A stretch of 24,000 nt of DNA from Candidatus Bathyarchaeota archaeon B26-2 (GTDB lineage: Archaea; Thermoproteota; Bathyarchaeia; Bathyarchaeales; B26-1), in NCBI GenBank assembly GCA_001593935.1, contig LUCE01000002.1:45772-69771 (forward strand), in the 5' to 3' direction. Both the position numbers and the translations under genes were made by a program. Numbering within the stretch: position 1 is the stretch's first letter; every line of letters begins with the position of its first letter. Below, piece by piece: positions 21,499 to 23,966 of the stretch. The notes under the pieces were generated by a model that worked only from the letters and a program-made list of their open reading frames with translations, was not told the DNA's origin and ran no database searches.

Positions 21499-23966
21499 CC
21501 AAAAAGAAGCTAAGAATAGCTTTAGCCGGAAACGCCAACGTTGGAAAATCCCTAACCGGAGACTCTGAGGTTATCATCTATCACGAGGGAAAGTGGAAGA
21601 TAGCTCAATTACGAGAGATAGTTGAGCACTCTCTACGCCGCCGACCGGCCGCAAGATACGGGGAGACAGAGATCTCCACACCGAACAATCTCTTCACAAT
21701 ATCACTAGATCCAAAGACGATGAAGGCTGTGAAGGCCAGAGTCTCGAAGGTTCTACGCCACAGAGAGACCCGACGCTTGGTACGGATAAGGACAAAGTCA
21801 GGCCGCGTATTGACCGCCACCAAGGACCATAACTTCATCGTTATGGCGGACGGCGAGCTAAGGGGCTTGGAAGGCGAACACCTATCCTTGGGGGACCGCG
21901 TCCCCGTGGCCGACGGACCGACGCCACCTACTCTGGAAAGACTTGCCTCCATAAACATCTCTTGGGACGTCATAGAGGAGATCGAAGAGGTAGACCCCCA
22001 AGATGGATACGTGTACGACTTGGCCGTTGAAGGTTACGAGAACTTCATGTTGGCCAACGGGCTCTTCGTTCACAACAGCGTGATCTTCAACCAGCTGACT
22101 GGTCTCCATCAACATATCGGGAACTGGCCGGGTAAAACCGTTGAAAAGGCTGAGGGAACCCTCCACTTCAAGGGTTACGAGATCGACATCATAGACCTGC
22201 CGGGCATATACTCTCTCTCAACATTTTCCTTGGAGGAGCTCATCTCGAGAGAGTACATCGCCGTCGAGAGACCTGACCTGGTCATAAACGTCGTAGACGC
22301 CTCGGTTCTAGAGAGGAACCTCTTCTTCACTCTACAGCTGATGGAGCTGGAGACCCCCATGGTGATCGCGCTGAACCAGATGGACGTCGCCGCCAAGAAA
22401 GGGATAAAGATCGACTGCCAAAGACTTGAGGAGCTCCTAAAGGTACCCGTCATTCCGACAGTAGCAATAACCGGGAGAGGAATCTACCAGCTACTGGAGA
22501 GGTCGATCGAGGTCATCGAGAGAGGAGGAATAAAACCCCCACGGATAGAGTACGGAAGAGAGATCGAGAAGAGGATCGAGAAGCTAACAGACTTAGTCAA
22601 GGAGGTTGGGTTCAAGTATCCAGCCCGATGGACCGCCATAAAGCTCTTGGAGGGAGACAGAGAGGTCGAGAGGGAGATCCAGAGGGTTAAACCGGAGATC
22701 ATCCGGACTGCGAGGAGACTCTCCAAGGAGATCGAGAGAATACACGGGCATCCATGTCCAACAGTAATAACTTCTGAACGATACGAGGTTGCCGGTCGAA
22801 TCGTTAGAGAGGCTCAACGGATAGTCGCCCCGATAAGGCCGAGCCTAAGCGAGAGGATACACGCAATCACAACGCACAGGGTTCTCGGCTACTTGGTGAT
22901 GAGCCTTGTCCTGCTCGCGGTCTTCTACGCGATCTTCTCTTTCGGAGACTACACTTCAGGATTACTTGGAGACCTCCTCTACGGGTTGGAACATCCCTTT
23001 AGGACGATCTTCGGGAACGGGTTACTTGGAGACCTCCTCTGGGGAGGAGTCATGGAGGGGCTTATAGCAGGAGTGACGATAGTACTGCCCTACATCGTCC
23101 CTTTCTACCTGATACTCTACATGCTGGAAGACTCAGGCTACTTGAGTAGGATAGCCTTCCTCACCGACTCAATTATGCACAGAATGGGACTCCACGGTAA
23201 AGCATTCATCCCCATAATGTTGGCTTACGGTTGCAATGTTCCAGCGTGCCTCAGCTGCCGGATTATGGAGACTCAGAGGGAACGCCTCTTAGCGGCCTTC
23301 GTCGTAACTCTCGTGCCGTGCGCCGCAGTGACGGTTATAGTACTTGGGCTCGTCGGGAAGTTTGTCGGTATGAACTGGGCTCTGACGCTATACATAATCA
23401 ACATAGCCCTTGTCTTCGCTCTTGGGAGGATGGCCTTCAAGACCTTACCGGGTGAACCCACATCTCTCATCATGGAGATGAGCGAGTATAGGATGCCCCA
23501 CCTCAAGACCGTCCTGAAGCAGACATGGTTTAGGCTGGAAGAGTATATCAAGATGGCCTTCCCGCTAATAATTGTCAGCAGCTTCGTGATTAAGACTATA
23601 GAGGTTCTCGGCCTCCTCGATCTATCTCAAGCCGTGCTCAGCCCCATAACCACGGTTTGGCTTGGACTACCCCCAGAGGTCGGAGTCACCTTGATCTTCG
23701 GAATCCTGAGGAAAGAGCTCATGTTGATAATGCTTGCAGCCCTCCTCGGGACAACAGACTTCGGAAACGTTCTAACACCCACACAGATGATAGTCTTCAC
23801 CCTAGTCGCGATGCTCTACATACCATGCATAGCAACGATAGCCGCCCTCGTAAAGGAATTCGGCTGGAGAAAAGCCCTCCTCATCACAGTCTTCGAGATA
23901 CTCTTCGCGATCTCGGTGGGAGGAATAGCGTTTAGACTACTCAGCCTTATAAATCCCCCTTACTAA
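21495..23966 (+). CDS. feoB: ferrous iron transporter FeoB (GTPase + permease), interrupted by an in-frame mini-intein in the G1/P-loop
   Basis: The G1 motif GNANVGK/S is split. G3 is DLPG and G4 is NQMD. The membrane domain has [41 protein letters not shown] and a second gate region. After removal of residues 19-194 the protein is about 647 aa, a normal size for FeoB. Confidence 0.9.
   Translation: [823 protein letters not shown]
21549..22076 (+). mobile_element. mini-intein (176 aa, no homing-endonuclease domain) inserted in the feoB P-loop
   Basis: Block A is [11 protein letters not shown], with Ser1. Block B is TATKDHNF (T-x-x-H). Block F is [17 protein letters not shown]. Block G is LFVHN followed by +1 Ser. 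Joining the exteins gives GNANVGK+SVIFNQLTG, which is a canonical FeoB G1 motif. Confidence 0.85.
22962..23040 (+). repeat. exact 19-nt direct repeat spaced 60 nt apart inside feoB
   Basis: TTACTTGGAGACCTCCTCT occurs at 22962-22980 and again at 23022-23040. Each copy encodes LLGDLL. Confidence 0.6.

Follow-up and report, generated by a model that had tools for sequence, protein, structure and literature searches.

FeoB carries a mini-intein in its P-loop

We analyzed a 24,000-nucleotide stretch of DNA from Candidatus Bathyarchaeota archaeon B26-2 (contig LUCE01000002.1; hereafter the window), in which feoB, the gene for a ferrous iron transport protein, contains an in-frame insert of exactly 176 codons. 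Nucleotides 21549..22076 almost certainly encode a canonical class-1 mini-intein, consisting of a HINT domain only and lying between Lys18 and the Ser of the G1 motif GNANVGK↓S (arrows mark insertion points), which we read as an endonuclease-less remnant of a homing element that is tolerated by its host and has no regulatory function. The intein is of a canonical type and its P-loop site a classic one; what is new is the class of host.

Profile searches with the insert gave matches far above chance: Pfam PF14890 (Intein_splicing) scored 74 bits (E 1.3e-20; cut-off 35.8), TIGR01445 (intein N-terminal region) 46 bits (cut-off 24.5), and TIGR01443 (intein C-terminal region) 39.8 bits (cut-off 15.6). 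Among solved structures, the top sequence matches were the Pyrococcus CDC21-1 mini-inteins 6rpq (E 1.7e-19) and 6rpp (E 1.5e-18), both aligned end to end. The AlphaFold2 model of the intein (mean predicted local distance difference test score, pLDDT, 81.4; predicted template modeling score, pTM, 0.78) was an all-beta HINT domain with two short helices, and Foldseek matched it at a probability of 1.00 and template modeling (TM) scores of 0.80-0.84 to archaeal mini-inteins (Mvu TFIIB 5o9i, Pho CDC21-1 6rpq, Pab CDC21-1 6rpp, 7oec, Pab PolII 2lcj, and Pho RadA 4e2t). Bacterial intein-like (BIL) and Hedgehog HINT structures appeared lower in the same list (ranks 33, 34, 40, and 46-48), as they would if the insert were a BIL or another HINT autoprocessing domain whose host is cleaved rather than spliced; the best matches, however, were all true inteins. 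Furthermore, the insert ends in His-Asn followed by a Ser+1 nucleophile, interrupts a conserved protein at its most conserved motif, and leaves the orthologue sequence behind when removed. None of these features is typical of BILs, which lack a +1 nucleophile or ligation and are found in variable parts of non-conserved proteins, and we give an autoprocessing domain of this kind next to no credence.

The feoB open reading frame (ORF; 21495..23966, + strand) encodes 823 amino acids (aa), of which codons 19-194 are the intein. An earlier note on this DNA, made from the letters and a list of ORFs, had placed the insert at 21549-22076, with 176 aa and intein blocks A, B, F, and G, and the sequence bears this out exactly. 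The parts of the precursor are as follows.

21495..21548, + strand: N-extein, FeoB residues 1-18, ending in GNANVGK, the first part of the G1/P-loop; the N-termini of the intein-free FeoBs P0003, P0004, and P0015 are identical.
21549..22076, + strand: 176-aa class-1 mini-intein, by PF14890, TIGR01445, TIGR01443, PDB sequence matches, and AlphaFold/Foldseek.
21549..21551, + strand: Ser1 (TCC), putative N-terminal nucleophile, in block A (SLTGDSEV); read from the sequence and invariant in 13/13 same-site FeoB inteins.
21819..21830, + strand: block B, T91-K-D-H94, the TxxH predicted to activate the N-terminal scissile bond; read from the sequence, with T and H invariant in alignment A2.
22011..22076, + strand: blocks F and G with D157, H175, and N176; V, Y, D, L, H, and N are invariant in alignment A2, and the TIGR01443 match falls here.
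22077..22079, + strand: Ser+1 (AGC), the first C-extein residue and putative second nucleophile, which is the Ser of the GKS P-loop; intein-free orthologues read GK-S here.
22077..23966, + strand: C-extein, comprising the remaining FeoB G-domain, the helical domain, and the membrane domains (Gate, FeoB_C), by TIGR00437 and Pfam.

The terminal Asn176 is encoded by AAC at 22074-22076, and H175-N176 followed by Ser+1 span 22071-22079. Apart from the insert the gene encodes a complete FeoB: FeoB_N, FeoB_Cyto, Gate (twice), and FeoB_C were all matched in the 823-aa product, and the TIGR00437 feoB equivalog model scored 510.7 bits (cut-off 315.65) over residues 194-788. The junctions were placed by orthologue alignment, as the earlier note had proposed: in the intein-free Bathyarchaeota FeoBs P0003, P0004, and P0015 the junction sequence is exactly the product of deleting residues 19-194. 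The FeoB_N match covered profile positions 13-154 (196.8 bits) before in-silico excision and 2-154 (216.8 bits) after it, a gain of 20 bits, in agreement with the earlier claim that excision restores the G1 motif. In P-loop NTPases, the Ser of the G1/Walker-A motif GxxxxGK[S/T] is a Mg2+ ligand. The suggestion that this Ser also serves as the +1 nucleophile, in a Ser1/Ser+1 pair, is likewise upheld by the junctions and by the conservation of both residues in 12 same-site relatives.

A Pfam search of the 176 aa at E ≤ 1 gave neither LAGLIDADG nor HNH nor any other endonuclease family, the model is HINT throughout, and the linker from GDRVPV to ISWD is only about 18 aa. The insert thus has the make-up of a mini-intein and not of a bifunctional homing intein with a nested endonuclease. 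It also combines Ser1, TxxH, His-Asn with Ser+1, the HINT fold, and an in-frame removal that restores the host, the features of a class-1 intein. Cysteine is absent from all 176 residues, and both nucleophiles are Ser.

Proposed splicing pathway

With these residues in place, the intein is real and intact, and probably active. As translated, the 823-aa precursor would have an interrupted P-loop. With T91 and H94 of block B assisting, the Lys18-Ser1 bond would first undergo an N-to-O acyl shift, and transesterification through attack by the hydroxyl of Ser+1 would come next; Asn176 would cyclize with the aid of H175 and the block-F residue D157, and an O-to-N shift would ligate Lys18 to Ser+1. 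The expected product is a 647-aa FeoB with its GNANVGKS loop intact, presumably functional. With 176 residues separating the two parts of the G1 loop, the precursor should not bind GTP normally, and this FeoB copy should therefore depend on splicing.

A family of same-site FeoB inteins records endonuclease loss

We then investigated whether other FeoBs carry inteins at this position, a search that the earlier note had also recommended. Protein searches against a word index, queried once with the intein and its 9-aa flanks and once with an alignment of 9 intein sequences, gave only P0001, P0009, and P0209; the family was recovered by an exhaustive search of representatives and by contig scans. 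Same-site inteins of 175-218 aa were present in at least six further FeoB lineages, besides 458-aa versions with LAGLIDADG motifs. A genome scan located the orthologue in B26-1 (LUCD01000033.1, KYH41220.1; locus L001), with a 175-aa intein at the same site that is 71% identical to the window copy. The exhaustive, profile-free search of 1.84 billion representatives contributed P0121 (MEM2964781.1), an 854-aa Bathyarchaeia FeoB with a 189-aa intein (50% identity to the flanked query, 42% over the intein alone), and P0009 (JAOUOZ010000230.1), an Aigarchaeota contig whose end falls within the intein and whose upstream genes encode DtxR, FeoA, and again FeoA. Scanning of metagenomes brought in a further 15 FeoB loci whose intein lies at GNANVGK↓S...HN↓S[VA][IL]FN, of which L008 is 99% identical to the window and L009-L020 are JGI contigs with the following inteins.

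L009-L011: 175 aa.
L016: 190 aa.
L012-L014: 198 aa.
L017: 213 aa.
L015 (3435-4088): 218 aa.
L018 (1268-2641), L019, and L020 (2452-3825): 458 aa.

In each of the 13 complete same-site copies, the first residue is Ser and the last two are His-Asn, with Ser as the next residue. Identity to the window intein ranges from 39 to 71%, and T91, H94, D157, H175, and N176 are invariant in the same-site alignment, in which pairwise identity falls to about 40%; S1, T..H, D, HN, and S+1 are thus the fixed positions of the family. Its members share with the window copy the identical insertion point, Ser1, Ser+1, and blocks A, B, F, and G, and differ from it in their linker remnants, the window linker being the shortest, and in the LAGLIDADG endonuclease and helix-turn-helix (HTH) region of L018, L019, and L020.

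The 458-aa alleles L018 and L020 contain the LAGLIDADG-type motifs FLGIYLAEGS and GYLQGDGW/GYFDGDGW. L020 matched LAGLIDADG_3 at 27 bits (Pfam cut-off 22.5) together with an HTH domain, whereas L018 gave no Pfam LAGLIDADG match despite having both motifs. The 218-aa intein of L015 retains a stretch of about 30 residues that is homologous with the beginning of the endonuclease region in the 458-aa alleles, the 198-aa forms retain a shorter piece of it, the 190-213-aa forms have shorter linkers, and the window intein has essentially none. Because of these graded remnants in the 458-, 218-, and 198-aa forms, we place the window intein at the minimal end of a deletion series derived from a homing intein. 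Judged by its sequence, the window copy descends from a family of LAGLIDADG homing inteins, directed at this position of FeoB in several archaeal lineages, and has lost the endonuclease. The earlier description of a fixed mini-intein with no endonuclease is therefore accurate for the window copy, within a family that retains 458-aa LAGLIDADG alleles at the same site.

One further locus, the related metagenomic contig L007 (1900-3300; ENA ERZ27248455 k141_393575), carries a B26-1-like feoB with 95-97% nucleotide identity to L001. Frameshifts and stop codons interrupt the N-terminal half of its intein, the block-B His is replaced by Cys, and a deletion of about 1.1 kb fuses the G-domain with the C-terminal membrane part; this feoB is a pseudogene in decay, or else it was poorly assembled.

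Selection and inheritance

Comparison of the window with B26-1 gave a ratio of nonsynonymous to synonymous substitution rates (dN/dS) of 0.19 for the intein (dS 0.89) and 0.10 for the exteins (dS 0.71), which indicates purifying selection on the splicing domain. Since intein dS is similar to extein dS, the intein was probably already present in the common ancestor of B26-1 and B26-2, and its inheritance has probably been vertical at least since their split. GC content showed no step at the intein borders; together with the similar dS values, this led us to reject a recent horizontal acquisition for the pair. Across 10 lineages, intein identity tracked extein identity pairwise (Mantel r 0.80, permutation p 2e-4). 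A rough neighbor-joining tree of the exteins, drawn without support values, interleaves intein-bearing with intein-free FeoBs, a distribution which, as far as this tree resolves it, is the patchy pattern usual for mobile inteins.

Some points weigh against our reading of an active, tolerated mini-intein. The dN/dS values come from one pairwise estimate with dS near saturation, and the AlphaFold2 model was built on a shallow 4-sequence alignment, although only residues 31-37 fall below a pLDDT of 50. Furthermore, we infer the splicing chemistry, and the fact of splicing itself, from features that were observed directly: anatomy, homology, predicted fold, junctions, conservation, selection, and same-site alleles.

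Alternatively, the insert could be what is left of an intein that has decayed and no longer splices, or a FeoB domain specific to the lineage, in which case the gene would be non-functional or the insert structural. That decay can happen is illustrated by the broken feoB of L007, with its block-B His to Cys change, frameshifts, and 1.1-kb deletion. In the window, however, every catalytic residue is present and the ORF has its full length, the exteins combine the low dN/dS given above with a TIGR00437 score of 510 bits, and the catalytic residues are invariant across same-site inteins of only about 40% identity. Moreover, a 176-aa insert in GxxxxGK↓S is, from established knowledge of the Walker A/G1 motif, incompatible with nucleotide binding unless it is removed. 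We consider a remnant or a structural domain highly improbable.

Is splicing conditional?

The earlier note had raised, as speculation, a post-translational conditional control of Fe(II) uptake, and for this we found no support. Under such a scheme the intein would be kept as a switch, with splicing, and hence Fe(II) uptake, conditional on a temperature, iron, or redox cue. The insertion does abolish the P-loop until splicing, purifying selection acts on the intein, which several lineages have retained after endonuclease loss, and the part of the literature covered here documents conditional splicing in other P-loop inteins, e.g., Pho RadA and mycobacterial DnaB. Any intein in a gene that the cell needs should nevertheless show purifying selection on its splicing domain, a DtxR-type transcriptional regulator is already part of the operon, and close FeoB relatives are entirely intein-free. 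The complete lack of Cys separates the insert from redox- or zinc-trapped conditional inteins: neither a disulfide nor a zinc-thiol trap of the known kind can operate in it. Splicing may still depend on temperature. Taken together, we regard a switch as unlikely, and the element is most plausibly a tolerated selfish element without a regulatory role.

Only marginally less doubtful to us is a broader proposal, that FeoB inteins are kept after endonuclease loss as gates on transporter maturation (allowing it, e.g., only under hot or reducing, Fe(II)-rich conditions), or, in a weaker version, that the Ser1 clade hops between GK↓S/T P-loops of unrelated NTPases. If gating were true, it would add a post-translational layer to DtxR control.

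Gene neighborhood and other features of the window

The genes immediately upstream of feoB are the following.

20371..20844, + strand: DtxR-family iron-dependent repressor gene, upstream of feoAB (Pfam Fe_dep_repress E 7.6e-21, Fe_dep_repr_C E 7.4e-11).
21232..21498, + strand: feoA, 88 aa (Pfam FeoA E 2.6e-22).

The order DtxR-like/feoA/feoB also occurs in L001, L006, and L007. The feoA stop codon (TGA) and the feoB start codon (ATG) overlap as ATGA at 21495-21498, which suggests translational coupling of the two genes. Between the DtxR-like gene and feoA, the region 20915-21015 contains seven TTAGG/CCTAA pentamers in about 110 bp, with a near-palindrome, TTAGGGAACCCTAA, at 21000-21013 and an inverted repeat at 20942-20960/20987-21005. 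The pentamers resemble half-sites of DtxR/IdeR iron boxes, making this region a candidate operator; the spaced pattern TTAGG-N5-CCTAA was not enriched window-wide.

Two antisense ORFs lie inside the intein (21605..21973 and 21882..22166, both - strand); being opposite a conserved coding frame, they were taken as chance ORFs and rejected as genes. Elsewhere in the window, a 667-aa ORF (7090-9096, - strand) has an unusual fusion of an N-terminal TANGO2 domain with CoaBC domains (Flavoprotein and DFP), and a 556-aa ORF (15314-16984, + strand) had no Pfam match at E ≤ 0.001. No other inteins, RNA families, or tRNAs were found in the window.

Annotation, literature, and significance

The window protein is deposited in GenBank as KYH42122.1, 'hypothetical protein AYL32_001190 [Candidatus Bathyarchaeota archaeon B26-2]'. 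B26-1 KYH41220.1 and the Aigarchaeota fragment are also labeled hypothetical protein, and the other members are plain 'ferrous iron transport protein B'. The B26-1 and B26-2 FeoBs are mislabeled because of the insert, and their annotation can now be corrected. NCBIfam release 20 has dedicated models for several proteins with inteins, Tes and RtcB among them, and none for intein-containing FeoB.

FeoB is not known to be among the described intein hosts, as the earlier note had it, and our literature searches agree. Full-text searches for inteins with FeoB, iron transport, or Bathyarchaeota returned only incidental co-occurrences and no FeoB intein, and the main text of the largest host survey (PMC4760082) names no FeoB, iron, or GTPase-transporter host, with a FeoB entry in its supplements still possible. 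FeoB as an intein host, and this insertion site, thus appear to be undescribed, though the sequences have been public in GenBank since the B26-1 and B26-2 assemblies.

The list of intein hosts, mostly replication, repair, and nucleotide-metabolism enzymes, thereby gains a metal-uptake GTPase and membrane transporter. The compact one-site series (458 aa; 218, 198, and 190 aa; 175-176 aa) should be useful for studying endonuclease loss, and Cys-free Ser1/Ser+1 mini-inteins, possibly derived from thermophiles, have some appeal as parts for protein engineering. These findings leave the present understanding of inteins as it was.

Relatives outside FeoB and comparison with known inteins

Junctions were mapped among the best 150 representatives obtained with a query that carried the GNANVGK flank, giving 94 N-junctions. 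The N-junction directly follows a P-loop [GA]K in 27/30 of the top-scoring relatives and in 24/64 of the lower-ranked ones. Ser1 stands at 74 of the 94; the earlier note had called Ser nucleophiles less common than Cys, but within the intein's own clade Ser1 is nothing unusual. The P-loop bias could have been an artifact of the flank in the query, an explanation that we rejected when re-scoring with the intein only, on the candidate list originally picked with the flanked query, kept P-loop inteins at the top. The leading non-FeoB relatives were then P0167 (76.9 bits; an uncharacterized P-loop protein), P0125 (76.1 bits) and P0217 (75.7 bits; both MCM-a), the Pho CDC21-1 construct, P0254 and P0188 (SMC/Rad50-like), P0140 (AAA ATPase), and P0141 (T2SSE/VirB11-like ATPase), with hosts checked and confirmed by Pfam. 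Only one comparable match lay outside a P-loop, the RNA polymerase A'' intein P0127 (64.5 bits).

P0167 (754 aa), the closest non-FeoB relative, has its intein at APTGTGK↓S...HN↓ST in a host with no other Pfam domain. Related Ser1 inteins also occur in P0209, P0204, P0221, and P0261, at ...IID[TS]KG↓S...HN↓S[HY][IL]GN[WH]; P0209 has no Pfam domain besides the intein.

Inteins are reported to cluster in P-loops (Novikova et al. 2016, PMC4760082; Beyer et al. 2019, PMC6801210), which the earlier note had called classic insertion sites. The preference of the relatives for P-loops fits this clustering and is compatible with occasional movement between P-loop sites. Among known systems, the MCM/CDC21-a (CDC21-1) inteins, e.g., P. 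horikoshii 6rpq and P. abyssi 6rpp, are about 27-35% identical to the FeoB intein over its whole length. The Pyrococcus copies are of similar size (164-168 aa), lack a homing endonuclease, follow the Walker-A Lys of a P-loop, and use Ser+1; they have Cys1, as seen from their C1A mutants (PMC6801210), whereas the FeoB intein has Ser1, which it shares with the metagenomic MCM-a inteins P0125 and P0217. The CDC21-1 mini-inteins splice even at 37 °C (PMC6801210). Because identity is only about 30%, the CDC21-1 and FeoB inteins are not alleles, and their hosts also differ, the former being an AAA+ replicative helicase and the latter a TRAFAC-class GTPase fused to a membrane transporter.

The inteins of RFC-a, DnaB-b, SMC/Rad50-like, AAA, and VirB11/T2SSE ATPases share with the FeoB intein the GK↓S/T position in the nucleotide-binding loop, and in P-loop inteins the Mg-coordinating Ser/Thr doubles as the +1 nucleophile, according to Novikova et al. 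2016 (PMC4760082). These other P-loop hosts are replication, repair, or secretion ATPases, whereas FeoB, a metal-uptake GTPase, does not belong to the functional classes that predominate among the intein hosts of the same survey.

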